A stretch of 64,000 bases of DNA from contig NW_024704742.1 in the NCBI RefSeq assembly GCF_018977255.1, positions 126,234,001 through 126,298,000 on the forward strand, written 5' to 3'. Below the pieces are notes generated by a model that saw only the letters and a program-made list of their open reading frames with translations, made no database searches and was not told the origin of the DNA. This stretch comes from Callorhinchus milii. Lineage: Eukaryota. The translations under genes were made by a program, and so were the position numbers. This document shows positions 1 through 60,282 of the stretch, piece after piece. Each line of letters begins with the position of its first letter. Positions within the stretch are counted from its first letter, which is position 1.

Positions 1-414
1 GACATAAGTAAAATATTACTTATTGATTTGCAAATTCATAAGGTTCATAATTTAATAATCATCTTGTGTTGGTTTATTTAAATGGATGCAGGCGATATAT
101 GTGAACTGGTTGTGTTGATTGTGAGGATAATTTCTTTTGATGAAAGCAGGCAAAACATTTGTTGTGTTAATTGTGATTTCCATTTTGTTGGAATTCACGT
201 AAGCTGCAAATATCAAACATGAAAAATAGTACAGTAAGCAAAATATCTGCAGAAAAAAGGCAGCCATGGTTTTCAACAAACATTTTTTAGACATTGTCAA
301 CCTTACTTGTCATGATTCACTATCCACAAATGTCACTATGTATTTGGCAAGTCAGAAGTTCCAATGAATACAACAAATATCTCAAATTAGATCCCAGTAT
401 CCCAAAAACAGAGG

Positions 415-3560: not shown

Positions 3561-5917
3561 TGAGGCCGCCTCAGAGAGTTGACTGAATTCTGACATTTCG
3601 TTGCCAAACATGTCGCCTCAGAACTAATTCAGCTCCAAGGAGACCCAGCTCATCTTGCCCCCAAGGAGGATAGTAATATTTGTATATAAAAGCTATTGAT
3701 GGGGTAATACTCTACCATGTGTGTATTCAGCACGCTACCAAAATATGCAGGTGCAACAGAAAGAAAAACTTTTTTTTTAAATTGCTCCAAAAATGCACTG
3801 TGTGGGGAACATATATTGTCCTCTGAAAATCATAGTGAACTTTCCTTGGCACAACGTATGTCCTTAGGGAAATCAGATTACTTGCAACCATTTCGGATCA
3901 TAGTAAACTCTTTTTAATCAATTTGAAATGCAGCTCATGTTGATAAACAAGTAGGATGCCATCCTTTCAAATCCTTCTGCAGATCAGTATATAAATTGAA
4001 ACATATTTGCCATTCCTTACTGCTTCCGTTCATTCATATTTTAAAGACTTATTTATCAGCGTAGCAATGTAAAACCAAAATAACAACAGGATTAGGCAGC
4101 ATTTGGATCATCTGGATTTACATAATCTGTACATAACTAGATTGAAGTAATTCAAGGTCAATGTCGACCGCACTTTCTCTCTGGCATTTGCCTCAGTGGG
4201 AAGTAGCTGTTTCCTTTTAGCATTCTCAAAACTATTTGTCTCAACCAAAAATCCAATCCTTTTCTTTATAAAAAGCTTCATAATCCTAAAGTAAGCACAA
4301 TCAATGAAAGGCAATTTGATACAATCTGACATTCGCTGAATGACAGAAACAAAGAATGCAGTTTGTGCAATAATAAGGCAGTGAACTTGGGTTTTCTTAC
4401 ACATATGGTAATAGAGGTAAGAAAAGTCACGATCAATTTGTTGAACTGACAAATATAATTAGCAATCACGTGTAGAGAATTGTTATTCTATCTAAAAGCT
4501 TTTGCTAAGTAGCCTTAATTTAACACCTTTTCGTCAAACCGAAGTAACATTATTGCAAACGTCCGAAATCCAGTCACTCCAACCTTTATCCTTACAGAGG
4601 CTACGCCTCTTCAGTCTTGAAAAGGGATGCCTCAGAGGGACCTTATAGAGTGTATGTAAGATTTTAAATGGGATTGAGAAGTAATATCAGAGCCGAGATA
4701 GTTATAACTGGGATCAGAAGCATTTCTTCACACAGAGGGGTGTTAAAATGTAGAATGCTCTGCTCCAGAAAGCTATGGAAACAGAATCAATAGGGATGCT
4801 TAAAAGAGAGGTAGACTGATACTTGGATAGTAGAGATATTAAAGATATGCCGAAAAAAGGGTAAATTGGGATTAAAAAATCTACCAGAATCTATTAACTG
4901 ATGGAACAGGGTTGATGAGCTGAATGGCCTCCTCCTGTATCTGTTTTCCTGTTTGCACACAAGTTTTAAATGGCACAAGCTTGACCTGCATTGGGACATA
5001 GTTGTCCTTGAACAGAAACAAGCACAACCAGAGTGCCCTTCGCCCCTTCTCAGCGGGGTCTGGGACACTACTCTGCGTGAAGGGTGCTATATAAATGCAA
5101 GTTGTTGTTGTTTGTCCTTCAGGACAGTGTCCAGCAAAAATTGGTGTCCACCACAACCTTGTGATACCAATATGAATCAACAATTGGGACTAATGGCCCT
5201 TGTATCTTCTAATCTTGTGGCAAACACGGAAGCGGCTGCACGGAGGGAGGGCTCCAACCAACACTGACCTGTCACTAAGCACTCTGGAGGCAGAATCTGC
5301 TTCACAGCAGCACATCTATTTGCCAAGACCCCTCACATGAGGACCTGAATTAAGCAGTTGGTGCTAAGTAAACCTGGTACACTGCATTGGACTTGGATCT
5401 TGGGAACACCAAAATGCCTGGCAAGGCGCAAGAGGTCCTGTAAAAGTCCTGCCACAGGCATTGAGGTAGCAACATGTAAATATTAAAGAGGAGAGGACCA
5501 TGAGCAGAGCCCTGGGGAGTGCTACATGTCACAGTGCGAGGGCTGGAGGAGAAGCCAACGGTGGATACAAAGTGGAGATGATGAAAAAGGTAAGAAAGAA
5601 ACAAGGCAGGATGAGGACTATGAAGGTAATCACAACTTACACTTATAAAGTGCTTTTGCACACAGCAGAACGTCTCAAAGTGTTTTACAGAAAGGGAGAA
5701 GAACTCAAGCATGGTGGGAGGTGGGGGAAGGGGTTGGAGGTGATCAAACGCACAGTCAAAGAGATACATTTTAGATGGATTTTGAAACCAGAAAGAGGAA
5801 ATGAGGTGGAAGGAATTATTCCACTGCAATAAACCATTCATTCAGATGTTGCCAGTGATTGAAGATGTACAAACATATTTTAGGAATGACCCAAATAAAA
5901 ACAGGAAATAGCAGAAC

Positions 5918-6232
5918 GAAACACAAAATACTGCAGATGCTGGAAAACAAAAACAGAAGTCACTGAGAACACTCAGCAGGTCAGGCAGCACCTATGGTCA
6001 CGTGAAGAGAAGAGCAGAACTTTTTCAATGTAGACATTCCTAGAAGAGAAGTGGCAGTGAATTAAATATAAACAAAATGCAAAATACTGCAGATGCTGGA
6101 AATCTAAAAACAAAAACAGAACGAAGAGAAGAGCAGAACTTCTTCAAGATAGGCATTCCTAGAAGAGAAGTGGCAGTGAATAGATGTTGCCTGACCTGTA
6201 GAGTGTTCCCAGCGACTTCTCTTTTTGTTTTC
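5918..6232. mobile_element. Penelope pseudo-LTR remnants in inverted arrangement, with a 58-bp direct duplication
   Basis: aaaatactgcagatgctggaaa...cagcaggtcaggcagca (5918-5997) and its reverse complement gatgttgcctgacctg...(6181-6232). Duplication at 6004-6061 and 6123-6180. Confidence 0.75.
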
Positions 6233-6405
6233 ACGAAATAGCAGGTTGCTCAACATCTGAAAGAGAAAGACAAGTTAACATTAAACACTTCAACAGAAGC
6301 ATGAGGCTATTAATAATGGATAGGGATGCAGTTTGTCATGGTGATAAAAACGTCACAGATACTGTGATTTTTCTGCTGGTTCATGGCTTTTCTTGGTGTC
6401 CATGA

Positions 6406-10949: not shown

Positions 10950-11934
10950 TATCCATTTTCCAAGCCTGAACTGCACTTAAGGTAGAATTTGGGTAGTTTT
11001 GTATTGCAGATACAGGGCCACAAGACTGGATTGAGATAGTCCAGTCTCATTTAACAATAGACCCTTCATCAGAAAGGTCTAGGTTTGATTCAAACCCAAG
11101 GTCCACAGTTGATGTGATCTATCCCACAGTTGCCACCAATAAGAACAGTTTTTATAATAATAATAATCCTTGCATTTGATATAGCTCCTCATCACGTCTT
11201 TAAGATGTCTGAACACTCAAGACAGAATATACTGTGAAGTGAATCGACTTCACATTATTTGTGGGAGAACCACAGCTGCCAATTGGGCACAGCAGTGACT
11301 CACAAACAGTCGTGGACTGAGTGACCAAATTATTATTATTTATTTGTTTATTTATTTATTTGGGGAGGGATTCTTAACGCAGAAAAGCGATCTGCCAATC
11401 GACTAACAATTTTAATTGTACTATTTTAATCTTTATAATATTAAGGCATATCACTTAATTATTCAACGGGTTTTGAAGGCTTTGAGAAGTATTCATCTGA
11501 TTCTTCAAATTCATTCAGGGTCTGTATAAACAATAACAATCCTTGAATTTGGTATAGAGCCTTATCACGTCTTCAAGATGTCTCAAAGCGCTTCACAGAA
11601 TATACTGTAAAGTGAATTAATGCAAGAGAAGTGCTAATCACTGATATTATTACATAGGCAGTCAATATCTGTCTTTACAAACCCTGCAGCAAACCCACTT
11701 GACATTGTTGTTCACCTGCGAAACAAACAGTCACTACACTTTGAGATGTTCTCCCCATGTGAAATGCATTATATCAAATGCAAGGATTATTATTATTATT
11801 AGTTATGCAGCTGTGTCAATGGAAATTGTACAGTTCTAGTATGCTATAAATTTCACATAAAGATTCAATAAAAGTACTTATTAATAATAAATAATATGTG
11901 CTTCCAAAAGCTGCAATTTTGCTTTTACACTTAC

Positions 11935-12133
11935 GAAAGTTTTCAACTGTATCAGTTCATAAGCACAACTTATACAGTTTATGAGCTGCACAGAAGCTGT
12001 TCTCTCCTGCTTCGTTTGTAGTTTCCGACAAGAGTTGAATCATGGCCTGGCTTACAGCTGCTCGCTCAAAGTGATGTTATGAAGCATATCCAGATACAAA
12101 TTGCTCATATACCGCCATGAAGATGGGAAATAG
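11935..12133 (-). pseudogene. Exon-like block with two in-frame stops
   Basis: AG|CTATTTCCC...ACTTTC|GTAAGT (consensus donor). Reads YFPSSWRYMSNLYLDMLHNITLSEQL*ARP*FNSCRKLQTKQERTASVQLINCISCAYELIQLKTF. Confidence 0.5.
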
Positions 12134-13741
12134 CTTTTATTTGGAAATGACAAAACAAAGATAAAAATAGAAAATTGCAGTGAAAAGGCTGAGTTCATAT
12201 TTTCCTGCTTGTTGCTCTAATGGCTTTAAAGATGTCTTTTGAGGCTTACGTTGCATGCTGATTCAGCTTAGTACAATAGATCCTGGAAATCTGGATCTTG
12301 CACCACAGGTTACGGAATATTATTGATTAGTTGCAGTTGCAAGTGAAGCAAACACTGTGGAAAGCAATGTTTCAGAAAGCACGGATTCAGAAACAAAACT
12401 GATGATTCCACTCATAACTTTCCCATTTTTAAGGAAAATGGCCTTTGAATGGAAAAATATGCAACAGTTCAGACTTCGCCCACAAAATATACAGTTAATT
12501 CGTTATATTCTGTGAAATGTTTTGAGATGTCTCAAAGACTTGATAAGGCCCTATATCAAATGCAACGATTATTATTTATTTCATCCAGGTACAGTGTGTG
12601 GACTTTTCTTAGTACTATATTTCTTAGTCTTGTCTTGTGTGCATGACGCTAGCAATAAAAAGGCTAGACTGCATGGCAGACTGCATTCAGATTTGTATAG
12701 TGTAATACAAGTAGTTTTAAGATTTAATGACTGTAGTGCAAAGCACTTTCTCAACTTTTAATGGAAGATGAAAACATTGATTAACTATTAACACAATTAA
12801 GGAGATGGCAGGTAAATGCTGGCCAAAGATAAAAGATTAGAAACAGTCTTTTGTTTCCCAGCAAAAAAAATGTGAAGCATGAGGCAAAGCAATAGATCAC
12901 AAGATGGGTTCAGATGAAGAAGGCCCTATGACTTATTTGATCTCATCCTTTCAGAATAGTCACCCTACCATCCTCCTATTACAGCATCAAGGTGTTTCTT
13001 AAATGAGTCCAGGGTCCTGAGTCATGGGACATCTGTCTTAGAAATAGACATAATAGTCACCGGGAAAAAGGAATGCATCAAATCAGCTTTAAAAATAATA
13101 ATAATAATAATCCTTGCATCTGATATAGCGCCTTATCACATCTTCCAGATGTCGCAAAACATTTCACAGAATATATTACAAAGTGAATTAATGCAAGAGA
13201 ATTGCTAATCATATTTGTTAAATGAGAAGAAGTTGATGCATAAGGTTGCCCAACAAGGTCACAAGATCACAAATTTGAAAGAAGAAAGCTCTTTGAACTA
13301 TTTGACCTCATCCTTGCAAAATGCCCATCCTACTACCCAGCATCAAGTTATTTGTTAAATGAGTCTAACTGCCCCTACAACCACCCTTTCTGGTAAATCT
13401 TTGCATTTGTTAATTATCCTTTGTGTAAAGAAATACTCTGGGTTACCTGTCCTGAAATTGCTCTAAACCTAGGCCTTATGTTCCTCTGTCTTTGTGTCCT
13501 TGAAAATATTGTTTTGGGTTTACTTTCTCAATCTTATCTAGGACCATGTATACCTATATTAGATCCCTTCTGAGGTGTCACTTTTCAAGGTTGAAAAGCC
13601 CGAGCTTGTCTAATCATTGCCCAAAGCTCATTACTCCAACACTGGGTATCATCTTTGTTGCTTTCCTCTAGGGCCTGAACAGTCCCACTATGTTGCAGCG
13701 ACCAGAACTGTGTGCATGATACCATGCCTCAGTGGATGGAG

Positions 13742-14500
13742 AACAACAACAACAACTTGATTTATATAGCGCCCTCCACGCCGGACGGCGTCTCAGAGCG
13801 CTTTACAGTAACAGATCCCGGCGCCGAGGGAGGGGGAGGAAGGTGACCAAAGGCACAGTCAAAAAGAAAGGTCTTCAGCAGAGACCTGAAAATGGGAAGA
13901 GAGGGAGCGAGACAAAGGGAGTGAGGAATTGCAGTTCCAGAGCCTCAGGGCATAGTGGCTGAAGGCACGGCCGCTGAGGGTGGAGCGGAGGACTTGGGGG
14001 ATGAGGAGAGGCCAGACTCGGAGCAACGAAGGCAACTGGTACTGTTTTGAGGAGAAAGGAGGTCAGAGAGGTAGGGGGGTGCAGAGGAGTGGAGGGACTT
14101 GAAAACAAGGGTGAGGATCTTGAAATCGATCTTCTCTGGGATAGGCAGTCAGTGCAGTCTGGCAAGTACTGGGGTAATCGGGGAGTGGAGTTTGGTGCAG
14201 GTGAGAATGCGGGCGGCAGAGTTTTGAATGATCTGGATTTTATGGATGGTAGTGGATGGGAGACCGGCGAGGAGGGCGTGAGAGTAGTCCAGCCGAGAGG
14301 TGACAAAGGCATGGATCAGGGTTTCAGCGGCTTGTGGCGAGAGGTATTGGTGGAGACGGGCAATTCGTCAGAGGTGGCAAAAAACGGTGCTGGTGAGGGA
14401 CCGGATGTGCCCTGGTCACAGATAGAGAGGATGTCGTTTGTGACTTTCACAAGCGCAGTCTCTGTACTGTGGGCAGGGCAGAAACCGGACTGGAAACCGA
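13742..14500 (-). mobile_element. L2 LINE family B fragment, internally deleted
   Basis: [25 protein letters not shown] motif. Family-B tail gcgctctgagacgccgtccggcgtggagggcgctatataaatcaag(TTG)n on the minus strand. Confidence 0.88.
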
Positions 14501-17500
14501 ACAATTCAAGCACTGGTTGGTGAAAAGGATGAAGTAGAAACCAGTGCAAATGTCAACATGTTCAAGAGCAATGATAGAATGTGGCTGAAGTGCAAAGAAC
14601 TTTAAAATAAATACACAGCATATCATCCTGATAGTTATAAAAGAGCATACTCGCCATCAGAAATAGCTGGCATTTACAGAATAGGGCTGCAAAATGAGGC
14701 AAACATTCAAAATATTTGGAATAAACTTCAGGGTGTCTGGAACTTGGAAATAATGCCATGGTTGACCTCATGAATGTGTCATGCAATCAACCTAGACTGG
14801 CAGCTCAGCCCTGAGAATTGAGCTATCAATCTTTAAGACTTTTCCCCCAAAACTAAAATCACCTTGTATTAGCCCTGATCCCTTATGCAAATGAGATTAC
14901 ATTGAGTATCATTTTGGAGCGTTTCAAATAGTTGAAACTTTTTGTTCCTCTCACAACAACAACAATACAAAATTTACAAATTTACATTGATAACACCTTT
15001 TATGTCAGCAGGATGTCCCAAAGCACTTCATAGGTTATATTGTAAATTGAAGTAACAATATGATTTGTAGTCAAACGTGGCAGTCAATTTGCACATAGCA
15101 ATTCCCGACACCCAGTTTATGCCGCATCCAGAATTGCTTACCTTCTGTCTGACTTAAAAATAATTCTGCCCACTAATCTTGATGAGTGAATTACAGCAAT
15201 AATAATCCTTGCATTTAATAGAGCCCCATGGATATTACTGAATGTCTCAAATGGTTTTGCAGGGTTTAATGTGAAGTATAGTGACTGTGTAGGATTATTA
15301 GAAAGTCAGTCTGAACTTGCTGCTCTCTATAGCAAAAAACGGCATCACACTAATCCAGACAAAGGCAGCATACAAACTAAGGTCAAGTAATTTACTACCA
15401 CTGACACATGTGTCATGAATAACCTGGGATTTAATGATGACATTGATCTTAGAGGAAAACAAAAATTCCCCACTGAGCTCAAGTACTTGAAGAAGCCAGG
15501 AACAAATAAGCAGTGACCAATGTGGTGAGACCCAATGACAGATAGATTGGTCATTCACTTCACAGATGTTTGTGGGACCTTGCTGTGCGCAAATTGGCTG
15601 TCATGTTGCCTACAAAGATACTCTTCAAAGAAATGACCTGTGAAGCACTGTAAGATTTTCTTTGTTACAGGTGCTCACAAATGCAAGGATTGTTATTGCT
15701 AATAAGATTGAAGGTAAAAAGAAATTAGAAGAGTATGGCCCAAACTGTACTATTGGCTTTGAGCTATGCCCAGACATTTGTACAGTAGTTATCTAACCAC
15801 TACTTTCTGTTTTAGTTACAATAAATATGTTTTAGTGTCTGTAAAGGTGGTTTATGGTTTAGCTATCTTCAACCTGCTCTGAAAAATCTATTTTCAGATG
15901 CTTGTCGGCACTTAATTGTACGGAGGAACAAGAGGACACAGATTTAGGTTGCAAAGGGCAATTTCAGCACAGACACCATGAAGTATTTCTTTACCCAGAG
16001 TTTAAGAAATAACTGGAACAGGTTGCCATGAAGGCTGGTTGATAGGCTTATTTAGTTCTTCATGCTGCACTCATTTATTTATGCTGTCAAGGGAGGACAA
16101 TAAGATGGGGATTCTGGAAGGATGTGTTCAAATGGATGCAAGGGCATTCTTTATCCGAACCAACCTTGTGATTTTGTGGACACTTTTAAACAGTTGCTCC
16201 AAAATGGATGGTAAAGAAATAGAAACACAAGTGCTAAGTTTTTAACTCACTAACAATAATATTAATAACGTAATAACAGAAGTAAGAAAAAAAGGCAGAA
16301 AAAATAGAGTATGCACGAAAGATTGAAGAAGGAAATGAAAGTGCAACCAAAAATTGGTTTTAAAAGTACTTCCCCATTTAGGAGTTGAAATATATGACAT
16401 TTTCTTGCGGATTCAAAATACTAAATATCCTTGAATCCATTAAGAAACAGAGCATTTCCCACACCTTGGCATTAACAAAAGCCTCCATTATCTTTCAAGA
16501 TTGAAATTATTTTACTTATTATTTTAATAATTTGGTCACTCAATCCACGACTGTTTGTGGGCACCTCTGTATGCAATTGGCTGCCACATTTTGCCCACAA
16601 AATACACAGTCAATCCACCTTACAGTACATCCCGTGAAGCGCTTTGAGACATCTCATCAACTTGATAAGGCACTGGATCAAATGCAAGGATTATTATTTA
16701 TTTGCTAATATAGTAGTTTTTATTAACACTACTATATTAATTTAAAATAATTTTATTTCATTATTTTAATATCTCGCATTTTTTGTGCAAATAGTGTGTT
16801 TCCTTAAATCTATTTTTCTGTGTCTAGTTTTGGAAACACAAAGAAGAGAACTCATTTAAAGATGCCTTGTGGAAAGCTTTTGAAAAGATTCTATCTTTTT
16901 ACATTAACTCTGAGACTATATTGTTCCAGATAAGGCTATTGTCAGGTCTTGTACTGGAGTATTATTTTAGGCTGAACACAGGAATATATTTGCTGGTTTC
17001 CATTTCCGCTTGTTACTCATTTGCTTTTCCAGTCCCTACTCTAAGCTCCTCGAGTTTGGATGCTACCTGCTATGAATGAGAAATGTAAATCTAACCCAAT
17101 GTGATTTTGTGTTTCAGATGTTATCACATCGCTTGTGTTGGCTTGACCTTTTCTACTCGTTGTCCTTCCAATTCCTTCAAGGCTAAAGCATAGCTGTGAA
17201 AATCCAGAGACTCTTTGATTCCTTAATGCATATTTCTCATTTAGTTCTTCAACTGAAGTGATCTCCTCTGAGACAAACGGTGTCAATGTTAGCTCCCTAC
17301 CTTATTCCATTCCGAGAGCCATTCACCCTTATCAGTGGAATTTCACTATAGTCAAGTCAAAACAGTCAGAAGGTTCACCTTGAGTATTTTTGTGCCTAAT
17401 TGGACTATTTGCTCTGAGCGATTAATCACAGTGTGAATTTGTATCTACTGTATGAGTTAAGATAAATGGCATCCTTAATCTCCTGAGATGTAATGGCGGC

Positions 17501-19534
17501 CTCCTGCATCCGACTCCACAGAAGTTTCCAGTTATTGTTCTGCAATACTTTTATCACAAAGTTAAATTTGAATGATTCCCAGCAATGATTTGTGTTGGAT
17601 ACTTTCTGCCCTCTTTCAATATTTCTTTGACTTAATTTAGCTATGGATGTTTCTGGATCCTCTTGTTCAGTCATTTTAATGAAGTTAGTCTAAGCGATGC
17701 ACTTTGCAGAATCTTATTTTGATCACGAACATACATAATTGGTTTTGGTATTAAAAACCGCTTAACAAGAAGATGTTTAGCAATGTGATAAGTTAGCTGG
17801 TTTCCACTTACTCCACTGCACAGATATTTCAGTTTTATAATATTTGTATTGGCATTCTCCTTGTTCGTATATAAAAGTACCTTCTCAAAGTGGTCTCTAG
17901 CATTCAAGCTGCAACGTAATTTGTTTTCGGAGGACAAGGATCAACTCCCAATTTATACATAATTTCACATGATGATTCAACACAGTATTAACTGGGCTGT
18001 AGCTTTCTCATAATAATATCTCAATTGTACTTTGAACAACCCAAAATGTTTTTTCCTCTATTATGTTGCTAGGTAGAATATTCACAATATAAGTTGTTAC
18101 TGATATCAGTTTAGAGTCATTCTTCATTTGTTCCCATTTAAGTTCCCTGGTCCTACTTTCAGATGTACTGTACTTTGAAGTAATAGCATGGGATTATGTT
18201 ATCTATATGATTAAATATTTATAATAATAATCGTTACATTTGATTTAGTGCCTTTCACGCTGGAAGGATGTCTCAAAGCATTTCCCAAAATGTACTAGAT
18301 ATATAGAAAAATAGAAACAGGAGCAGGCCATTCAGCCCCTCGAGCCTGTTCCGCCATTCTATAAGACCAAGGTTGATCTGTACCTCAACTCCAATTATCT
18401 GCCATTGCCCCACATCCCTTGTTAATCTGACCTAACAAATATCTATCCACCTCAATTTTGATACTATAAGGTGTAGTGACTGCACTGGAATGCCATCCTA
18501 GACTATGAGCTCAATGTCCTAAATATATGCATATTTAGAACATGCTGAACTTACATATGCAAATAAAAATGCAAAATAATGCTTGCATTTGATACTATGC
18601 CTTATCATATCTTCAAAATGTTGAGATCAACTAGATTAGAATCTCAACAGCCTGACCACGCCACACAGGCCAATAAATTGACTTGAGCTACATAACTATA
18701 TTAATAATATTAATAATAATCCTTGCATTTGATATCACGACTTTCACATCAGGAGGATATCTCAAAACCCTTTATAGGATTTATTGTAAAGTGTAGTTAG
18801 CGATTGTGCATATTGTAAGCAAAACATATGGCCCCAAAAGTTTCTTGTGACTGATTTATTTCTACTGATCAGCAGAAACAAATTTGTGATGACAGCAAAG
18901 GGAATGCATCCCATTGCTTTAATTTGCAGAAGCAACGTCTGCATGGTATCACTGTGGCCTTTGATATTTCACTATTCAGCAAAAACTTTATAAACAAGCA
19001 TTTAGAACTTTTCACATCTTTCTGGAGGTGCAGAAGAATCCATGGAAAAAGTTGATACATTCAGTCTTAGAACAAATGTCCTTAATATGGCATTTGTCCA
19101 GCATTAACAGGGTAAGTTTGTTCCATTTTTTGGAAGTAAATGCTGACACACCCCAAATCTGATGCATGACATTTGTTTCCTTTGTTTTCATCATTTCAGT
19201 TAGAACCACTTAATGAAAAAATTATGTTAGTTGCAAATCAATCACATACTTGACAGCATCTGTCACCAGTAGTAACGGATGATGTAAATTTACCATACAT
19301 ACATTCCCATAAGATTTCAAGATTGTCACAGCTAATAGCCTTCAGTGGGTATTTTGCAACTGACCTGTGATTGTGAAACTGATGTGTTGTAATGCTGAAT
19401 AAGCATCAACGGTAAATTTTACAGTGCCAATTAGCGCTATATTTAAAACTACATTTCACAAATTAAATTAGGACATTGGCAACATTGTATTGCGTTGATA
19501 GAAAGTGGAATGTCTTGTGACATTATTTACTTAT

Positions 19535-19619
19535 CATCCATCCCTCCATCCCTCCATCCCTCCGTGCATCCATCCCTCCGCCCGCCCGTCCATCCGTTTG
19601 TTTGTTTGTTTGTTTGTTT
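19535..19619. repeat. Compound tetranucleotide microsatellite (CATC/CCTC/CGCC, then TTTG)
   Basis: Read directly from the sequence. Confidence 0.9.
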
Positions 19620-21040
19620 ATTACCAATACCCTTTCTAGGGAATAGAGAGGTATAGTTGAGGGGAAATGAATAGGTGGTGGCTCCTGTGGAATATAAACA
19701 CCGACACGGATCAGTTGGGCAGAATGGCCTGTTTCTGTGCTGTATTACTTCATGTAACTCTGCATAACAATCATTTCTCATTTTAACTCTACTATTTAGT
19801 ATCACGATATAATCGTGCCTTGGGCGTAAAATCACAAGATCATGAGATTGGTTCAGATAAAGAAGGCTTTTTGGCCCATTTAATCTCATCCTTCCAGAAC
19901 ACCAACTGTATCCCATCACATCATCAAGCAGTTATTTTTAAATGAGTGTCCTGGCTGCAACCACCCTTCCTGCCATTAACTTCCCTCTGGGTAAAACCAA
20001 TTCCTGCTGTATATCCTGAAATTGCCCATTGCAATCAAAACCTTTGTCTTCTTTATCTACTGACTTGTTGTATCCTGGAGTATTGTTCTGGGTTTACTTT
20101 TTCAAGCGTATAACAATTAACATGCTGTACACCTCCATGAGGTCCCAGGAAAGAACATAAGAAGATAAGAATTAGGAGCAGTAGTAGGCCATTCGGCTCC
20201 TCGAGCCTGCCGTGCCATTCGATAAGATCATGGGTGATCTTCAGACCTAACTCTAATTACCTGCCCTATCCCCATATCCCCTAATCCCTCTGTTTTTTAA
20301 AAATCTATCAGTCTCAGCCTTGAAGCAGTAATGTTCCTTTGTATCAAGAAATAAAGCAGCTTAGGTCCTGGAATCTAAAGGACACAGCCTAGAAGCAGTG
20401 CTGTGATCACCACAATGAAGGGCCTGGGGCATGATTCAGATACCAACAACAACTTGCAGTTACATAGCCTCCTTCACATGGGGTAGCGTCCCAGAGCGCT
20501 TCTTATCAAAGTTGGTTACATTCAATCTCGGAAGAATTGGCATGAGTCAACTGTGCAACTGTGAATAATTGCAATGTAAAGCAGTCTTGTTGTTCTATTG
20601 TATAATCTAAAGGAAACTTTTTTTATTGTTGTTTTAACAATAATCTGAGTCAGGTCAGTTAACATTTTATCTAAAGCTTCCAAATCAGATATCAAACTAT
20701 AGTTATACAGACGTCATAGTATACCTATATTACTATGAATTCAAAGAATTCAATGAGTTTTATTAGTAATGATCTTCCCCTATTAAGTCAGTTGGGTTGT
20801 TTCTTATGAAGTTATTTCTGCACAACTACTCCTGCAGTCTGCTTCTCAGAATAGCTTCCATCATTGTACATATAATTGATATATGATTGGGTCAGTCGTG
20901 GTCACTTTTTTCCTGTATAAGTCCTCATTCTGCTATTTGACTGCTCCTCATGTCATTATTAGAATGGAATATTCATCAAAACCACCTTCAATTTCTTGAG
21001 TTGTGTTCTGAATGTCAACTCAAGGCTACTCAGTGATTTG

Positions 21041-21362
21041 GAGTCCTGTAGCTCAGTGGTTAGAACACTTATCTTGCAAACGAGACACCTGGTTCAATTC
21101 CAGGCAGGGCGAAACCTTGGGCAAGTTTCCTTACTCCACATGCCCCATAATAATCCCTCCAAAACAAAACAATAATAAATTGGTCATTTTCAATCCACGA
21201 CTGTTTGTGGGACACTGCTGTGCGCAATTGGCTGCCGCGTTCGTCCACAAATATACAGCCAATTCACTTTACAGTCTATTCTGTGAAGCGCATTGAGACA
21301 TCTAGAAGATGTGAAAAGCGCTATATCAAATGCAAGGATTATTATTATTATTATTATTATTA
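21041..21362 (+). mobile_element. tRNA-derived Deu-SINE with L2-type tail (short form)
   Basis: A box TAGCTCAGTGG, B box GTTCAATTCC, Deu core tgtttgtgggacactgctgtgcgcaattggctgccgc, (TAT)n tail. Confidence 0.9.
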
Positions 21363-22528
21363 CTCTTCAAAATGGTAGAATAAAATCACAGGACAGAGGC
21401 CAGTGCAAATAGGTGCAAAAGTGCTGACTGCAACTTTTTCTTTCTTACTCATAGTCTCACCCTTGCACACCCAAACTATAAGGATTGCCTCTAAGAAGCA
21501 TTTTTAATATCTTGCTTAATTAATTTTGCAAAAAGCTGTATTGAAAGTTCACACACCAAATGCAATAAAGATGAATTTCCAATCACAAGTGGAACTTTGT
21601 TTGGTTTGGATACTTTTAAGCATCGTTATAGGTTTCTACAAGTGTGAAACACCTGGCTAACAAATACATTCAGACATCAGTGCCAAAGGCTATGTCAAGA
21701 CTTTGCATGTTAATAAAATCACTAAAGACAGCACTTGAGGCTTCCTGAACAGTGGCATGTATCCAGCCATATAAATTAGCACAGGCTTATTTCTGTAATG
21801 TTGTCAGGGAAGACGATGACAAGTTAAGATTGTATCAACTCAGCTTGTCTAAATCAGAGTTAATTGGTAATTCAGATAGGTATCTTGTAGATGTTGATTT
21901 TGATGTTAAGTAGCACTGAAAGAAATGCTCTGAATTAAATAATATTTTGTCCAATTCAATTATTATTAAAATTTTTGAACATGTAACAAAATGCACAATT
22001 TCATAGCTTTAATTTCTTCTCCCACGATCGATCGACTCTCTGGTTTGGAACTGATTCAAATGTCTCTTCAGTTTGCTTATGATACTTTAAGTGCTGCAAA
22101 TCTGTATAACTGATAGAACTAGTGTAGCTACAATTCTTTATTTTTCCTTTCTGAAGAATCTTGCCGCGCCTCACTGAGCAGAGATCTCTCAAGATGAGAT
22201 AAATACTTCTTTGGTCATAGCTTTGAATTATGCTATAATTTAATAGCTGCCTTTAGTATGTTATTTCAGAGATAACCTTGGAGAGTGTAAAGAGATCTGA
22301 TCTTAAGATACTACTACATGATGCGGTTTTTAATGTCTAATCCTTAGAGCTTTTCTACAATAACACAACATTTCCCTTCTCCACCATTACTCATCTCCCA
22401 GGCTGCCAAGACACTCATCCAAGTCTTCATCACATCTAGGCTTCACTATTCTAATGCTCTGTTTGCTGGATTCTCCAACTCCTCTTTATACATGTTGCAG
22501 ACTATCCAACACTCTGCAGTCCAGGTGT

Positions 22529-23218
22529 TGTTGTCAGAAAAAAAAATCAGCCATCATCCGTTTGCAACCGAATATTAGACCTTTCCTTTATTATTATTCA
22601 TTATTCCCCAGTTTCCCAATGGGTCAGACCAAAGGCCGGTACAATCAACAGATCTTATAACAGAATAATACCACCATAGATATCTCGAGTTCAACACTGT
22701 GTCTTTACAGCACACAAGCTTGATTCTTCATGTTTTCAGTCTTCTTGCTTACAGCTTTCAATCTTCCATCTGATATCGTCAGTCATAGTGTTTCTAGCTC
22801 TCAGTCTTCCATCTCCCGTACCCTTGACTCTGCAGCCCGGGATGGCTCCATCTCCCGTACCCTTGTCTCTGCAGCCCGGGATGGCTCCATCTCCCGTATC
22901 CTTGTCTCCGCGACCCGGGACGGCCCCCGTTCACAAAGTTAACGGAACTCTTATACCGATGTTCGTCCAATCATGGTGCGGACATTAGATCACCTGGCCA
23001 AAATCATGCTGAGTTCACGTGAACACCTCATGGGGTGTACGTGCCTCACGCACACAAACACACTGTCCTTGAGACAGTCCGTTACCTTGTGTACGTGCAG
23101 GGCAGTAGTACACATCTTGTCCTTGAGACACTCACGTGACCTTGGGTGTAAACTCATGAGTTTCAGTCCAATTGCTCCCCCACCCACACTTAACTTAAAA
23201 GTTAACCCATTCGCAACA
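22529..23218 (-). mobile_element. Solo LTR inserted in an L2 fragment
   Basis: TGTTG...CAACA termini. On the minus strand TATAA (22955-22951) precedes AATAAA (22592-22587). Internal tandem repeats. L2 sequence flanks both sides (22370-22528 and 23219-23290). No clear TSD. Confidence 0.7.
22808..22924. repeat. 3 x 39-bp tandem repeat inside the LTR
   Basis: Unit tccatctcccgtacccttg(a/t)ctctgcagcccgggatggc starting at 22808, 22847 and 22886. Confidence 0.95.
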
Positions 23219-35767: not shown

Positions 35768-36234
35768 CAAAACGATGAGATGATGCAAGGCCTTAGTCAA
35801 AAGTGATCTGAATCCAGATTTTATTTTTCAAAAATGCTTGATACCTACTTTTCTGTGCGTGTCAGACACCCAGGTAACTGAAAAGAAATGGTGTACAACA
35901 CTTGCGGAATGTTTCAGCTTTCAAAAATATGTACTTTTCTTTCAAGATAAACACTGGAAAAAAATGATTTCTTGTAGTTTTCCATTACAGAGTGTAATTA
36001 AAATAGTATCAGAGGAATCCAATGGAAAATCAAATTATTATTACCTCATAGCATTCTGAGTAAAATAAAAACAAATCTTATTCAATTTGATTTTTTGATC
36101 TGTCCTTCAGATGAGACATTAAATCAAGGTGCCGTCTGCCTGTTTAGGTGGATATTAAAGATCCCATGGCACTATTCAAAAAGAGAAGGGAGTTCCTCCA
36201 GGTATTCTGGTCAACTATCCTCCAAATAAACAAT

Positions 36235-36566
36235 TAATAATAATAATAATAATAATAATCCTTGCATTTGATATAGCGCTTTTCACGTCGGGAGGACGTC
36301 CCAAAGCGCTTCACAGAACACACTGTAAAGTGAATTGACTGTATATTTGTGGGCGAACGCGGCAGCCAATTGCGCACAGCAATGTCCCACAAACAGTCGT
36401 AGATTGAAAATGACCAATTTTTATTATTGTTTTTGGTTTTGGAGGGATTATTATTAGGCTCTGTGTGGAGTAAGGAAACTTGCCCAAGGTTTCGCCCTCT
36501 GCCTGGAATTGAACTTAGGTCTCTCGCTTGCAAAGCGAGTGCTCTAACCACTGAGCTACAGGACTC
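36235..36566 (-). mobile_element. Young Deu-SINE (short form)
   Basis: Reverse complement is nearly identical to 32725-33043. Confidence 0.92.
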
Positions 36567-39561
36567 CACAGAGTGTTTTGCGGACATTGTGTTTTGTCCA
36601 CAAAATACAGTCAATCCACTTTACAGTATATACTGTGAAGTGCTTTGAGACATCTCAATGATGTGATAAGGCACTACATCAAATACAAGTATTATTATTA
36701 TTAAGTGGTTTTCAGTGGGAGAGGAATCAGATTAAAATGGACCATTCTGTTGAGATTCTAGGAAACAAGAATACCCAAATAACTTTAATTGTTTCCTTTA
36801 ACCAATCGAAAGATAACTCACAGAGGATTTTTCTTTTTTGGGAAGCAATTAATAGAAATGGATTTGTATAATCCTGGAGTTGTCTAAATCCATACCAAAT
36901 CCAGCCGGTAAGCAGAAGCAGATGGTAGGACAGAGTAGCAGCTGCATATGAAAACATGTGAATTCAAATCAACATTGTGCTTCTTTAATGCTATTATGTA
37001 TTTTGCCAAAAGGTATCAAAAGCTCGCAAACTAATACAAATTCCATTGGTACCGAGAGCAATGATGTCTTGCTCTTTTTTCATATTAAAGGATTTCGAGA
37101 TGGTCCCATTATTGAAACCCTTTACGTAGGACCTAGTATAAAGATAGACTAGAAAGCCATCTAATAAATTAATCCCCAAAGATAAAGCATGCAGTCCAAA
37201 TAAAGCATTCTGTTCACAAATTCCCAACACAGTAAATATCAGTAAACAATGCTAGACCGTTGGATGTTCTGGCTCCCTGCTAATTTAACGAATAAAACTA
37301 ATTTGATTTGGGTTGATAAGGCCAAAAAGAAGAACTACCATTTTGCTAGCAAATTGCTTTTTTAAAAATAAATAATCTTATAATCTGCAATTAGAAGAAA
37401 CAAACCCAGAACATTCATATTTAGAGAATTTCAGTTTAAAATCAATTAAATGAATTGAATGGAATATTACCTTCATTCAGCATCTGCACCTTCTCTAATG
37501 CCTCATCAAAACAAAAGGTTGAATCTTTGAGGATTTCTTTTGATAAAAGCTTCACAGAAGGCAGAGATCACATGCTTGGAAACTGCTGAGAAGTAAATGT
37601 GTTGATCCATGTTCTCCGTTTGTAATTGATGTCATTTGGTGAAGAATCCATCTCTTTCTAAAGACTGGATTATACTCCAGGGTGTAGAGTCTTTATTAGA
37701 CTTTCTGAATCGATCTTTTCATTTTACTGGGTTTTAGTTCACATTTGGCACTCGGAATGGAGCTTCAAAATGCTACAGTTGTGTGGTTTGCTTTTTTTCC
37801 CTTCTCTCTCGTTGCTGTGCTATTTAGCTTCTAGAGTTTTCTTACCATGTTCCAGACATTGTGCGGCAAGATCCTGATGAATTAATTTTACCTTGCCAGC
37901 AAATTATTTAAATGCAAAAGCAAATTATTTCTGGTAATGGCACTTTTTACTCAGTCTGAGCCGACACTCCAGTGCAGCATGGGTTGCTGGGGGGGGGGGG
38001 GGTGGGGAGAGCACCACACTGTCAAGGGTACCATCCTTCGAATGAGTCATTATACTAAGTTAATGTGGCTGTTCAGTTGGACAATTGAAAAAGAGAAGGC
38101 ACTTTACAAAAAACAACTGATTAGAAATGAAGTGAATGTTCTCATATAGGCAAACATGTCAGTTTATCCAGGACCAGCCACGGCCGATAAACAATAATGA
38201 GATGAGCAGTGAATTTGTTTCAATTTGGGGGTAAATTTGGATTAAGAGGGGAATGTAAACCAAGATAACCTGGAAAAAGAGTCCATGTTTCTTTGAAATA
38301 GCAATGGCATTTTACATTGCAATAAATGTACATCGTTGGAGATTAAAATGGTTATTAAGCTAACATTTTCAGCAATGTACTCTATTGTGTATCAGGAGGG
38401 CACAGGGCTTTAACAGCATTTCCTGAAGATTTACTGCTTTGTCAAATTGAATCAATCTCAGCAAGACAAGTTTTGCACAAAATTGTTTCTAATTGAGACT
38501 CATCCATCAGCTGCTTACAGGGGCTGCTGTGTCCAAATGAATGTTCTGCCTCTTGCAAAATGAACTGATTTCTGAATTATTTACTAGGTCAATAAATGAA
38601 ATGGGGATTATGAAGTGGGAAATGTCCTGCTGTGAATGTTGACGATGAAACATTAATCACAAGTGTTAAATTTAAGTCTAATCACTGCTTGCTCGAATTT
38701 TGGTGGTATGGTATAATCCCTCGGAGTGTTAGAATGTAAGTCTATGTGAACTATTTATGTAAGGTAAGCTCTCAATCTGAGGCATGAAGAAAGACTAGAT
38801 GTTATACCACATTCAGAGAGGAATATTTAACTTGGTTGCTCCCATTCTCTGTCTCTGCCAGAAGTTAATAACATCCACAATGACGGAGATTTGGGAGCAA
38901 TGACTTAGCTGGTAACGTGACTGCCTAGAGTGAAAATCAGTCATGCAGATCAGGACATTTTAGATTCAATTCCCAGTCTATGCCTAGTTAGCTGATCTTG
39001 ACCAGAGTTCTAGATATAATTACGATACAATTTACCAGCCTCAACATCCAACAAATAATTCTCTGCCATTTCCGGCACCTTCAACGTCATTCAACCAGTA
39101 AGCATATCTTCCCCTCCCCTCTCAGCATTCCGAAGGGACCATTCCCTCCGTGACTCCCTGGTTCATTCCTCCATCACCACCAACAGTTGCTCACCCCTCC
39201 CCCCGGCACCTTCCCATGTCAGTGCAGGAGATGTAATTCCTCCCTTTCACCTCTCCCATACCACTGTCCAGGGCCCAAACACAGATTTCAAGTGAGACCG
39301 CGATTTACATGTACTACCATCAGCATAGTTTGCTGTATTCGCTGCTCACAATATGGTCTCTCTATATTGGGGAGATTGGGTGATCGATTCAGTCGAACAC
39401 CTATGTTCTGTTTGCAAGCACAACCTTGAGCTTCCGGTTTCTCTGGCCTCAATATCGATTTCAACAATTTCAGACTAAAACAGTTCACCTTCCCCCTCCC
39501 CCTCTTCTGTGACCATTACCACATCATCTGGTCCCAGACACACCTTTTCTCTCACAGAAAC

Positions 39562-39769
39562 AGAGAGAGCTGGGAAAACTCAGCAGGTCAGGCAGCATCT
39601 AAGGAGAAAGGAAAGTGAGTCAATGTTTCGGGTCCGCGACCCTTCATCAGAAAGTGGAAACCTGCCCTGACCCTTCAGTTCTGATGAAGGGTCGTGGACC
39701 CGAAACGTTGACTCACTTTCCTTTCTCCACAGATGCTGCCTGATCTGTTGAGTTTTCCCAGCTCTCTCT
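39562..39769. repeat. 91-bp inverted repeat with 26-nt spacer
   Basis: Arms at 39562-39652 and 39679-39769, about 6 mismatches by eye. Confidence 0.95.
39677..39713 (+). ncRNA. Minimal type I hammerhead ribozyme motif (Penelope-associated)
   Basis: AGTT-CTGATGA-A-GGGTC-gtg-GACCC-GAAAC-GTT-GACT: conserved CUGAUGA and GAAA boxes, 5-bp stem II, palindromic AACGTT at stem III, NUH site GUU, and 4-bp stem I (AGUU/GACU). Confidence 0.75.
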
Positions 39770-40294
39770 ATTTTCGTTTCAGATTCCAGCATCTGCAGTA
39801 TTTTGTGTTTTGTACACCCTTTCTGTCTCTGGTCTGCCTATTTTGTTGCAATTTCCATCCCTCCTCTGTTCTGCAGTATTAACACCTCTATTCCCGTGCT
39901 TTGTTGCAATCCCCCGCCCCCTTTGTTTTGTATCATTAATACATCATCCCCTGCCCTCTCCTTCCCAATATGCCCCAGTTTTGACAAAAGGTCGTGGATC
40001 TGAAATGTTGATTCACATTCCTTTCTCCATAGATGCTGCCTGACCTCCTGAGTGTTCCCAGCGACTTCTATTTTTGTTACATTTATATAGCACATTTCAT
40101 GCCAAGATGATGTCTCAATGTGCTTGACACTGACTGGGAACCCAAGCTCGTGGTAGGAAGGGGAAAGATGACCGAAAAGGCTTGAATTGGGGCAGGGAAG
40201 GAAAACATCAGCAATGTTCCTGTCCCTGATCACTTTCCTAGGTTCCCTGCTGCAAACTGCATGTGATTGCATCAACATCACAAGATTATAAGAA

Positions 40295-40755
40295 GATTCA
40301 CCAAGCATGCTGCCTGAATGAGCAAATGCAGTTTTAGGGAAAGCTTGATAAACTGGAACTTTATTTCCTTTGGAGCTCAGAATGTTGAGAGGGGATATGG
40401 TAATGTTATATAAGATGATGGGAGGCTTAGATAGGATGGACAGGGAATATTATTTCCAGTGATCAGGGAGTCTAGGACCAGAGGGTATAGTTTTAGAATC
40501 AACTTTCACACAGAGAGTGGTGAGAGTGTGGAATTTGTGCTGTAGTCAGTTGTTGGGAGACAGCAACTATGTGCATATTCAAAAAAAGACTGGACACATG
40601 TTTAAATGAGAATAAAGTTGAGGAATATGGGGAAAAAAACGGGATATGGAATTAGAGATAGGATCTTGGATAGGCGCTCATGTGGAGTATAAACACCAGC
40701 CTGATTGGATGGGCTGAATGGCCTGTTTCATATTTGTACTATCTATGAATCTATA
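40295..40755 (+). mobile_element. CR1 3' fragment
   Basis: Decayed RFTKML...LRGDM...FTQRVVRVWN and a 3' UTR ending gggctgaatggcctg. Other CR1 pieces at 4590-4945(+), 13280-13735(-), 15900-16150(+), 18300-18460(-), 20150-20325(-), 20720-20930(-), 25405-25530(-), 29390-29715(+), 31220-31565(+) and 60560-60780(+). Confidence 0.75.
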
Positions 40756-40859
40756 GTTGGTTCAACCCACCTGAAATCATCCTTCCAGATACCCACCCTA
40801 CAATCCTCCCATCACAGCATCCAACAAGTGAAGTCAATATCAGACTTGGCTGGAATTCC

Positions 40860-41355
40860 GTTCCCCAACATTCAAAAACCTGGGCAACACCAGCATCACC
40901 CCATCACACCCGCCCTCACCTAGCTCTCTTTGACCGAGCCTTCAGCTCCCCTCTCGACTCTCTTCCCCCTCCTCGCTGCCTCCCTTCCCTCCCCTCACCC
41001 TGACCATTTCTTCCCTCCTCGCTCCCTCCCTTCCCTCCCCTCACCCTGACCATTTCCCCCTGCTCGGGTCCTGACCCAACTGTGCAGCGCCTTGTGACGT
41101 CCTCCTGACGTGAAAGGCGCTTTATAAATGGAATCTTGTTGTTGTATTGGCTTCCCATCCCTCAGAGGATCGAGTTCAAAATTCTCAGCCTCACCTTCAA
41201 GGCCCTCCATGGGCCCTCCTACCTCTCTGACCTGCTAACACCTTATCAAACTGTCCGCTCCCTCCGCTCAGCAGGCTCCATGTCCCCTGTGTGGCCCACT
41301 CCACCATTGGCCGTTGGGCTTTCTGCCTCTCTGCCCCCACCCTCTAGAACTCTAC
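40860..41355 (+). mobile_element. Young L2 3' end (~40925-41144) nested in an older L2 fragment
   Basis: The older L2 'ITPALT*L...[14 protein letters not shown]' is interrupted by an L2-A 3' UTR plus (TTG)n tail. Confidence 0.8.
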
Positions 41356-43281
41356 CTCACATATTATGTAATGCTGAGGAACCCAGTTACTCTGTGGTAT
41401 CTTGTGCTGTCGAGTGCAGAAATACAGACTTAAGAATGGAACTCTCAATTGGTCTGTAAATTCATCCTTTATGTGTGAGCATATTAATTCACCACTTGGA
41501 TTTCCCATTGTAGGAGCAAATGACTAAACAGAAGAGCATAGGAACATGGGAGGTTACCAACCTAGGATGCCATTCAGCCCTTCCAGCCTACAACCCCCAT
41601 CCCCACCAAGCCCCACACACACAGATATATTGCATGGCTCACTATCCATATCTCTCTTAATTTCCTCCACTAATTTCTAATCTACTGCTTTCTGAGAAGG
41701 TTTAGAGTAATCAGCCAAATGTCTGATTGAAATGTACTGAAGATGATTTCTATGAGGGTCAGTCCAACTGCTTCTCTCTTTCGGCTCCATAAATTGGTGA
41801 ACTCTCAGGCTGTCTCACTTCATAGACACTGTATATTATCCAAAGGCAGGCTTCAGCTGTCCAGCTTGGTTTGATTTAGCATAATGGTGCTGACCTAAAA
41901 ATGTTTACAATTCAAAGATCGTAGCCAAGATTTAAGGGATGACATTCCTCACCCTTTGTACAGTCACTTTTACGATCTGGGGTTGCAATAGGAAATCCCA
42001 TTTTATGCGCACATCAGCTATTTTGCTTCACTGAACAGCAAGAGAGATTTCATCCCCTGTCCACACCGCTCCCCCCAACCATCAACACCCAGTAACGTCA
42101 CAGGATACAATGTGAACTTTCCTACTTTGCTCCTTCAGCAGAGTTAACTTACAGAGGAATCTCGTTGCTAATTGCCTGACCTTCGTTGCACTTAGTAACG
42201 AGTTTGGTATTTTAGCTTCCATTCAGTTTCAAATTACAACAACAAAAACTTGTATTTATATGCTGTAGCGTCTCGGAATGCTTAACAATGGAGGAATTTG
42301 ACACTGAGCTGTGGAGAAAGGGGAGATTAAGCATGGTCAGAGAGGAAAGTCTTAGGCGCGATTTGAAGATGGGGAAAAAGGGGGCAAGGCAGAGGTCTTC
42401 GGGTCAGGGCATCCTCACCTCTGATTGGCTGATGGACATATCGATCAAGCCTGTCTTAAAAGGAACCGACCCTTTAACTGAGTTTTACTTAGTTAAGTGG
42501 TTTAGTAGCTGAAGGCTTGTTAACTGATGGAAAATTGGGGGCAGGGAACTAATCCAACCAGAAAGGCGAGCAGAAGAGTAGAGTAGGAAAGGTCACAGAG
42601 ATAAGGTTCTGGGACCTGAGGGATTTATAGGTGAAGGTGAAAAAAAGCAGACTAGGAAAAAGTGACAGTCAATGCCCTCAATACAGCTATGTTCACATAG
42701 TGTATTTACATTTAGAAATGCCCAGGGTTAAATACTGTGATTTGTTTGTTCAATCACTTACCGTTTAACTATCCCGATATAGATTTCCCTATCAATGATG
42801 CAAAGCAAACAGAAGGCGTATTAGATTGATGCCCCAGGCTGACATCCCTAAAACAAATGATGTGGTAACAGTTTCCAGCCTATTACCATTGAGGCCTGGA
42901 GCACTACATTTATATTACAATGTATCATGAACATACCTTGCATTGTTTTCTGAAACCAACCAACTTATTACCACAATTCTCAGAGATCAAACGTTGTAGG
43001 CAGCCCTGTTGATTTTTTACCTGCTACAATTTAATGGAGCAACACAGAAATTCAATCACAATAATAATGTTTGACAGAGTGCCTTATATCAAAAAGGTCG
43101 CTCACTCTTTGTAGAGTGAGTTATTTTAAAGCATAATAACTGTTGTTAGGCACTTAAACTGTGGCAGCAAAGCATCACATGCATAGCACAGAAACAGACC
43201 ATTCAAACCAAATGGTCTTTTATAGGTGAGTGTGAATAAGGGAACTCTCTAGGCCCAATTGTCAAAGGATGATGTCTGTCT

Positions 43282-43574
43282 TAATAATAATAATAATCCT
43301 TGCATTTGATATAGCGCTTTTCACGTCGGGAGGAGGTCCCAAAGCGCTTCACAGAACACACTGTAAAGTGAATTGACTGTATATTTTTGGGCGAACACGG
43401 CAGCCATTTGCGCACATCAATGTCCCACAAACAGTCGTAGATTGAAAAATTTTATTATTTTTTTTTGTTTGTTTTTGGAGGGATTATTATTAGGCGTGTG
43501 GAGTAAGGAAACTTGCCCAAGGTTTCGCCCTGACTGGAATTGAACTCAGGTCTCTAACCGCTGAGCTACAGGAC
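43282..43574 (-). mobile_element. Deu-SINE (short form, deletion in tRNA head)
   Basis: (ATA)n tail, hairpin, Deu core and B box present; anticodon arm deleted. Confidence 0.88.
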
Positions 43575-43835
43575 GACTACCTGAGCAAATCAGATGACAG
43601 GGTGACCTCTCAGGGTAAGCAAGCCGGTCTGAGACTAGTGACCAAGGGCTCAAGTTACCTCCGTATCCAGTCTCCCTGCTTCCTCTTTGTGAGGGGAGAT
43701 CAAACTCTTCAGATTGGAAGGACTGAATTACCGATTCCAGCAAACAGGAGCTCAATCCGTTGAGGACATGTAAACATGTAAACACAAGTGAATCTCAACA
43801 GGAGATCTTTCTGTCAGGCACATATCCCGAGGAGC

Positions 43836-43879
43836 AACTGATAACTACTCTTGATCTTAGCCAAAAGGCCAACAACGAC
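43836..43879 (-). pseudogene. U2 snRNA 5' fragment
   Basis: Minus strand reads GGCCTTTTGGCTAAGATCAAGAGTAG-TTATCAGTT, matching the U2 5' sequence GGCCTTTTGGCTAAGATCAAGTGTAG...TTATCAGTT with one substitution and a short deletion. Confidence 0.8.
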
Positions 43880-44549
43880 ATTACCCATTGATGCTGCATT
43901 TCCTGAGTCCTACAGTAGTGTCAGCCTAAATTATGATCTGAACTGCTGGTGCAGGGCTTGAACCCAAGACCTTTTAACCTGAGTACTACCAACTGAGCCA
44001 ATTGACACTTATCAACAGTGGTTCAGCAGTAAGGGTAACCATCCAAAAGCATTTGACAAGGAGCTGTAGAGAACAAAGGATGCCACAATGGTTTAACCTA
44101 CTGTACTTTCACCTCTGGCATATGTATTTGAATCACTCACGGAATGATGGGATAAATTACTCTCTGTGCTGGTCCCTTATATGAAATGAGTTTAAACAGG
44201 CTCAACTCAGGTCCTGGCAGATGAGTGACTGTAAAGGAAAACTACAAACAATTTACCCCACAATTTGCAATCTCTTTCAAGAAGGACATAAGGATAGCAG
44301 GAGCAGGAAATAATAGAAATCTCTGCAAAGAAGGGGACCATCCGAACCAACATTCCTATGCTGAAGTTAGCTCATCCACGGAGTTATTACCGAGCGCAGT
44401 ATGGGGCAGTGAGGAGGAGGCACTCACTGTCCATATTAATTGCTTGCACTTTGCTGTAAGTATAGCGCTGGCTTTTTATTATTGTCTGTGGGTTTCGTAG
44501 CTTACTCGACTGGTACCAAAATCTCCAATACCTAATTTATTCCCACTCA

Positions 44550-59657: not shown

Positions 59658-59953
59658 TCAGGTTTCATTTACAATTTGCTTCACTTTCACTAATCCTGGT
59701 CTATTAAGTAAAAAACGAACAAGCAAGCTTAGAACCTCATCATTGAATCCCTTGATATCATCTTCTTCAACAGCCTCATACAGCCGCATACTCTCTGTTC
59801 CCCAACAAATATTTTTGCGATGATTATTCTGGTCAGCCTTAACAGTCAAACCCAAAGTGTTCAATTGATAACAAAAGAATGAGAAATAGATTCCGTCTGT
59901 GACTACAGCTTGCGAAACAAACGGTCGAGTCACATCCGCTTCACTCCAGAATC
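59658..59953 (-). CDS. MRPS30: MRPS30 last coding exon
   Basis: gtccttttAG|GATTCTGG. Encodes (G)[33 protein letters not shown]...KNICWGT...KGFNDEVL...NRP...NET*, with TGA at 59660-59658. In frame with the previous exon. Confidence 0.97.
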
Positions 59954-60282
59954 CTAAAAGGACAAAAATAAGTTAAATGATAACATCTGAAAGATTTTAG
60001 CTTCACATTCAGCATTCAGTAATTTAAATTAATGGATTGAAATGGAAGCTCAACAAGTAATTGTATACAATAATCCGGTTTGCTGTTATTTTTGTTGTTT
60101 GTGTCTCCGTATTGATAACCATACACCACAGCCTTTGTTACATAAATAAATACTGTGCTTGTGTAAGATTTGCTTTACTGGTAAAAAAAAATACCAATTT
60201 TGCCTGATATTTAAATATTTTGTACCAGAGTTTCTGTCTTAAACCAAAGTTAGACAAACTTTTAAACTTGTCAAACTTCATG

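Follow-up and report, generated by a model that had tools for sequence, protein, structure and literature searches.

A 260-bp fold-back of two truncated Penelope-like element 3' ends with hammerhead motifs, most likely an ordinary dead-end insertion

The 64,000-nt stretch of Callorhinchus milii DNA analyzed here (the window) contains a 260-bp fold-back unit (39554-39813) nested in the terminal region of an older Penelope-like element (PLE). The unit very probably consists of two heavily truncated PLE 3' ends placed head to head, only one of them tailed, which are enclosed by a 14-bp target-site duplication, were likely laid down by a single retrotransposition and have likely been inert since then. 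Most likely, this is a dead-end insertion of an ordinary, already known type rather than a new mobile family. The features of the locus are collected in Table 1.

Table 1. Features of the fold-back unit and of the PLE that hosts it (window positions)
Feature	Position	Strand	Basis or remark
Left part of the older host PLE: C-terminal ORF remnant with frameshifts, and start of 3' non-coding end	39034-39553	+	Translation, protein matches
Left copy of target-site duplication	39540-39553	+	Host sequence; 12/14 identical to 39814-39827
Inverted, tail-less, 5'-truncated copy of PLE end (minus arm)	39554-39652	-	90/99 identical to plus arm
Damaged minimal hammerhead motif	39618-39654	-	Stem III pair broken, 2/4 stem I pairs
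Arm junction, apparently private to the locus	39653-39678	.	Contig depth at 39656
Complete minimal type I hammerhead motif	39677-39713	+	Predicted cut after U39709 (GUU)
Direct 5'-truncated copy of PLE end (plus arm)	39679-39777	+	Arm alignment, comparison of the two end classes
One-sided 36-nt tail typical of PLE insertions	39778-39813	+	Not in minus arm or host end
Right copy of target-site duplication	39814-39827	+	Two private changes with respect to relatives
Right part of the older host PLE: rest of terminal repeat, ending tail-less at 40078	39828-40078	+	Arm identity, depth
Host-element minimal hammerhead motif, U3-A8 / A10.1-U11.1 variant	39977-40013	+	All pairs kept

The inverted repeat pointed out in a preliminary description of this DNA is real, but the length of 91 bp given there covers its inner part only: a repeat finder called arms of 95 nt (39558-39652 and 39679-39773; 93% complementary, spacing of 26 nt), and extension to the true end brought them to 99 nt, complementary at 90 positions. 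The fold-back region was predicted to form one long hairpin (-190.7 kcal/mol, z = -21.5), and none of 200 shuffled sequences was as stable. The nine arm mismatches comprised eight transitions and no compensatory change, with private changes in both arms. Five of the nine stay G-U paired on the plus strand and three on the minus strand, which is what transitions alone are expected to give, and selection on the hairpin was rejected as an explanation. The unit is asymmetric, with a tail on the plus arm only, and no ORF was present in the insert. The near-duplicate flanks noted before correspond to the 14-bp duplication, for which the probability of a chance match at a given place is roughly 8 x 10^-6. 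The duplication brackets the unit and the host PLE end lies on both sides of it, in agreement with the earlier view of a younger insert of about 260 bp in an older Penelope terminal region.

The host element was identified from the remains of its coding region. The stretch 39034-39474 translates, in shifting frames (three-frame translation), into a Cys-rich zinc-knuckle linker and the end of a GIY-YIG endonuclease, which stops at about 39474, and many related contigs begin at 39033-39043. A 91-residue piece of this ORF matched 42 proteins at E <= 0.001 (phmmer), for 40 of which the sole place of alignment in the window was 39004-39489 (tblastn); the remaining two (P0001 and P0002) were repetitive proteins with no alignment back and were set aside. 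The Pfam GIY-YIG domain was detected in nine of the 16 matched proteins that were scanned, five of them above the cut-off. The window's own degraded ORF pieces gave no GIY-YIG match in Pfam, and none of the 19 candidates passed in a word-based homolog search. A C-x-C-x-x-C remnant (39214-39231) aligned with the Cys-rich linker of the matched proteins. According to the available part of PMC8557442, a linker resembling a zinc finger is characteristic of the Neptune and Nematis clades; the host has this trait of Neptune/Nematis-type PLEs, and no reverse transcriptase (RT) sequence is left at the locus. On the other side of the insert, the right part of the host matched the plus arm with 81% identity across 106 nt (80 of 99 positions when the host end was compared with the whole arm), and contig depth was at repeat level on both sides. 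The Penelope origin proposed earlier is supported by the 80-81% identity of the arms to the host end and by the alignment of the host ORF remnant with GIY-YIG proteins. At diagnostic letters the host end agrees with the pieces at 5915-6234 and not with the insert, so that, judging from these letters, the insert likely derives from another PLE subfamily than the host and not from a local duplication.

The alignment of six related pieces from the window revealed two classes of 3' ends, located at two family positions. Tail-less ends (n = 3), near the end of a T-rich stretch, were those of the minus arm, the host (40078) and a copy ending at 6234; tailed ends (n = 3) were those of the plus arm, a copy ending at 5915 and a piece ending at 6072, with sequences homologous to the tail of the unit at 5915-5945 and 6072-6120. 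A second fold-back was found at 5915-6234, with arms of about 59 nt and an exact 10-bp duplication (at 5905 and 6235), so that the whole feature covers 5905-6244. Its minus arm is tailed and its plus arm tail-less, its junction is different, and it has no hammerhead. Between its arms, a 59-bp stretch unrelated to PLEs is duplicated around the extra tail piece 6072-6120, suggesting that template jumps occurred repeatedly.

These traits have counterparts in other species. A 30-40 bp tail at one end, together with an adjacent inverted and 5'-truncated copy, is typical of endonuclease-bearing (EN+) PLEs (accessible parts of PMC8557442, PMC3846280 and PMC8969392); palindromes occur at the junctions of inverted PLE copies (PMC3846280, in part), and the tail of an anole PLE corresponds to the interval that separates two start sites of reverse transcription (PMC11167929, in part). 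By analogy with those papers, the unit was likely formed in one event. The PLE reverse transcriptase/GIY-YIG protein would have cut the target, as in published PLE biology, and cDNA synthesis would have begun at two start sites about 36 nt apart, giving one tailed and one tail-less arm. Synthesis would have halted a little beyond the hammerhead, at lengths of about 100 and 140 nt, and a short templated patch would have connected both 5' ends; within the junction, 9 nt (39669-39677) form an inverted snippet of the plus core (39685-39693), which would be part of that patch. Both arms contain a hammerhead simply because this motif falls in the final 140 nt of the element, and the hammerheads would then be passengers of this segment. 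With EN+ PLE insertions (Penelope/Poseidon, Neptune and Nematis, as described in the portions at hand of PMC8557442, PMC3846280 and PMC11167929) the unit shares its origin from the 3' end of a GIY-YIG element, the head-to-head arrangement with an inverted 5'-truncated copy, the 36-nt tail on one arm only, the short target-site duplication, the palindromic or templated junction and the GIY-YIG host element. It represents an extreme case, with no ORF left and both arms of about 100 nt, and its duplication is of 14 bp, compared with 8-10 bp in the rotifer examples.

The motifs had been taken for minimal type I hammerheads of the Penelope kind, and their structure matches that assignment, with 12 of 12 pairs formed in both the plus and the host cores. 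The plus core (39681-39709) showed the full minimal core previously ascribed to it, including all invariant bases checked, a GUU triplet ending at 39709 and an extra A after A9. GUU is a weaker cleavage triplet than GUC. The minus core retains nine of 12 pairs: a CG>CA change breaks C15.2-G16.2, and stem I keeps two of four pairs, exactly the broken palindrome and weak stem I that had been described. A custom minimal-hammerhead descriptor gave a single match in the 64-kb window, namely the plus core, and none in 100 block shuffles. An Rfam scan of 36000-44000 gave seven matches at E <= 5, with no hammerhead family among them. A 17-base match to the minus core at 11060-11076 had no further similarity and was discarded. 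Scans with two patterns returned no matches in metagenome and viral contigs, and the only match in a bacterial genome (L001; 22 bases, no further similarity) was taken as chance.

The third core, that of the host, had been considered decayed. It is diverged, differing from the plus core at eight of 37 sites, all by transitions, but it is not broken: the 12 pairs and all invariant bases are intact, with C3-G8 changed to U3-A8 and G10.1-C11.1 to A-U. In a post hoc test that used the plus copy as a stand-in for the ancestor, eight random transitions preserved all pairs in 0.4-0.9% of trials and five, three of the eight changes being granted as subfamily traits, in 2.7-4.1%. The simplest reading of the U3-A8 and A-U pairs is a covariation probably inherited from an older subfamily. 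U3-A8 is a natural variant that occurs in PLEs too (PMC4209133, in part), and cores carrying it are active in vitro (PMC3088659, in part). The minimal type I hammerheads of PLE pseudo-LTRs (pLTRs; PMC4209133, by Cervera and De la Pena, 2014) share with the motif of the unit, in the sections available, the extra base between 9 and 10.1, the G10.1-C11.1 pair, the palindromic 15.2-16.2 stem without loop 3 and a helix I of 4 bp. That paper also describes the U3-A8 variant and pairs of minimal hammerheads on opposite strands, 100-700 bp apart and linked to truncated PLEs. The unit differs in its GUU triplet, in opposite cores only 30 nt apart and in a helix II of 5 bp, with respect to 7-8 bp in the Schistosoma examples.

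In order to evaluate whether the unit belongs to a family, contigs from four of 24 listed sequencing runs (X1 and X4 from organism A, X6 from organism B and X8 from organism C; 12,053-23,210 contigs placed per run) were aligned to 38800-40400 at 80% likeness. Summed contig depth, which is not a copy number and which for the junction comes from the single place 39656, was in X1 9.3 in the unique flank, 1.2-3.2 x 10^5 in bins inside the arms, and 20.9 at 39656, compared with 14,125 at 39636 and 175,333 at 39730. In X8 it was 53.8 at 39656 (from two contigs with another letter there) and 107,886 at 39636. The difference between junction and arms amounted to three to four orders of magnitude, and in the four runs the arms were covered about 10^4 times more deeply than the unique flank. 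Place 39656 was not covered in X4 and X6, which is no sign of a presence/absence polymorphism, given a coverage of only 5-9 in X4 and no contig bridging the site. Contigs leaving the plus arm at 39676 (111, 100, 226 and 278 in the four runs) continued with a consensus resembling the upstream pLTR of the host, and not with the junction. Joints between opposite strands were found in X6 and X8 at 39677/40018 and 39686/40018 (3-4 contigs each), while joint 39612/39719, a mirror position of the two arms and hence uninformative, was set aside. As a class, fold-backs are recurrent, but no recurrence of this junction was apparent. Uniqueness of the inverted unit, named in the preliminary description as evidence against a family, was observed at 39656 in the form of near single-copy depth, as far as contigs can show. 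At the two mismatches of the target-site duplication (39819 and 39825), the majority letters of the relatives were those of the left copy in all four runs (2,606/2,783 and 5,122/5,288 in X1), indicating that the duplication was originally exact. The empty-site joint 39553-39828 was not among the 15 joints listed of a total of 848, and no listed contig spans the unit. In organisms B and C the left flank has an ortholog, about 90% alike, which stops before the elements and so provides no date for them.

Metazoan non-LTR retrozymes (PMC7761336; bioRxiv 10.64898/2026.07.22.740005) resemble the unit in being short, non-coding and derived from PLE ends, with a type I hammerhead, and in the available parts of these sources they consist of head-to-tail repeats with same-strand hammerheads. 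The unit is not a retrozyme because it has no head-to-tail repeats: its arms are head to head with one core per strand, and no two same-strand cores occur within it, the host core being on the strand of the plus core but part of another element. Amplification as a unit was likewise not seen, with near single-copy depth at 39656 against 10^4-10^5 in the arms, in contigs only. The small retrozyme-like family proposed at the outset is not supported by these results.

The predicted folding bears on whether the ribozyme could act. Forcing the hammerhead fold would cost 54.9 kcal/mol (energies ignore tertiary contacts and proteins), the core was predicted to be base-paired even in partial transcripts, and pairing of the junction snippet with the plus core was still predicted when the left arm was left out. 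On either strand an antisense arm comes first in the transcript, and the prediction is accordingly that the core stays trapped in the hairpin and does not cut. The idea that the hairpin masks the plus-core ribozyme is in line with these predictions. According to the parts of the literature at hand, PLE minimal hammerheads showed no cleavage as monomers and weak cleavage as dimers (PMC4209133), the anole PLE hammerhead requires the protein of the element (PMC11167929), and eight of nine predicted frog dimers were left uncut (bioRxiv 10.64898/2026.07.22.740005).

Three other origins or roles were weighed against a single insertion event. That a solo PLE end came first, and the inverted arm was added later by local DNA repair or a replication template switch, is very unlikely: the 9-nt inverted core snippet in the junction does resemble repair patches and the arms differ at nine of 99 sites, but the two arms together are precisely enclosed by the duplication, the minus arm stops at the tail-less end of the family, like the host element and the copy that ends at 6234, and the same layout is found again at 5915-6234. 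It is highly improbable that the unit represents a small non-autonomous family of its own, which would be transcribed and then integrated again in full by PLE proteins. The near single-copy depth of the junction, the relatives that run into normal pLTR, the different junction of the other fold-back in the window and the lack of head-to-tail repeats all speak against it, despite the clean ends with a target-site duplication, the recurrence of some opposite-strand joints in 3-5 contigs (X6 and X8) and the report that cis-acting pLTR ends can suffice for mobilisation in trans (PMC3846280, in part).

A function of the locus as RNA, either as a hairpin feeding small-RNA or editing pathways or as a dimeric ribozyme made of the plus and host cores, is extremely unlikely. 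In the latter version, the host core 300 nt downstream would allow an RNA of roughly 300 nt to be released if transcription started inside the junction; both same-strand cores keep all pairs, a result rarely obtained with random transitions, their stem III strands can cross-pair, and cores with U3-A8 occur naturally and show activity in vitro, as cited above. However, the dimer fold would cost 34 kcal/mol without the left arm and 137 kcal/mol with it, the junction snippet pairs with the core even when the left arm is missing (both according to folding predictions), PLE minimal hammerheads cut poorly or need the protein of the element, most predicted frog dimers were not cut, and the closest host exon recognised lies at a distance of 20 kb with its 3' end facing the locus. 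The kept pairs are equally well explained by the consensus of an older subfamily. An extension of this reading, in which the nested plus core and the U3-A8 core of the host, 300 nt apart on the same strand, act as a mixed dimer that releases a retrozyme-sized RNA, with the inverted arm as an antisense lock, would make the locus a snapshot of retrozyme birth from nested Penelope ends, and this is scarcely to be expected. If the mixed dimer did cut, it would offer a direct route from nested PLE ends to retrozyme-like RNA.

Under the preferred reading, a single dead-end insertion, the locus adds just a further instance of a known PLE insertion pattern combined with a known ribozyme motif, both of which are already in print in general form. 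The literature search retrieved no paper on this element in this organism, and closer fish motifs may be listed in the supplements of PMC4209133. Collected in large numbers, such stubs have their value, given that the two 3' ends and the diversity of the junctions preserve a trace of how two cDNAs are primed and joined by PLEs, which has yet to be explained. Small-RNA pathways could also be supplied by a genome with an abundance of ready-made 100-bp hairpins. Neither consideration depends on this particular locus.

Regarding the surroundings, the only host exon recognised, at 59661-59972 on the minus strand, was the last coding exon of MRPS30 (Pfam PDCD9, E 1.7e-47), the 67 ORFs of at least 100 residues having otherwise been read by eye only, and the unit is likely intergenic. 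The window also contains other repeats, including many LINE reverse-transcriptase fragments (RVT_1 at 382-1494, minus strand) and a tRNA-headed SINE at 36236-36564 (tRNA match at 36499-36561, minus strand) with near-identical copies in many places. A U2 snRNA-like sequence at 43713-43881 (minus strand; 33.3 bits, E 0.00076) scored below the Rfam gathering score and is likely a pseudogene. Finally, about 100-200 contigs per run begin at 39677-39678, just before the core, with heterogeneous A-rich flanks, and the matching site of the host follows a pyrimidine tract and CAG (39940-39978) resembling a splice acceptor. The intron of Drosophila Penelope ends at the 5' side of helix I (PMC4209133, in part), and 39677-39678 could be a preferred 5' end.
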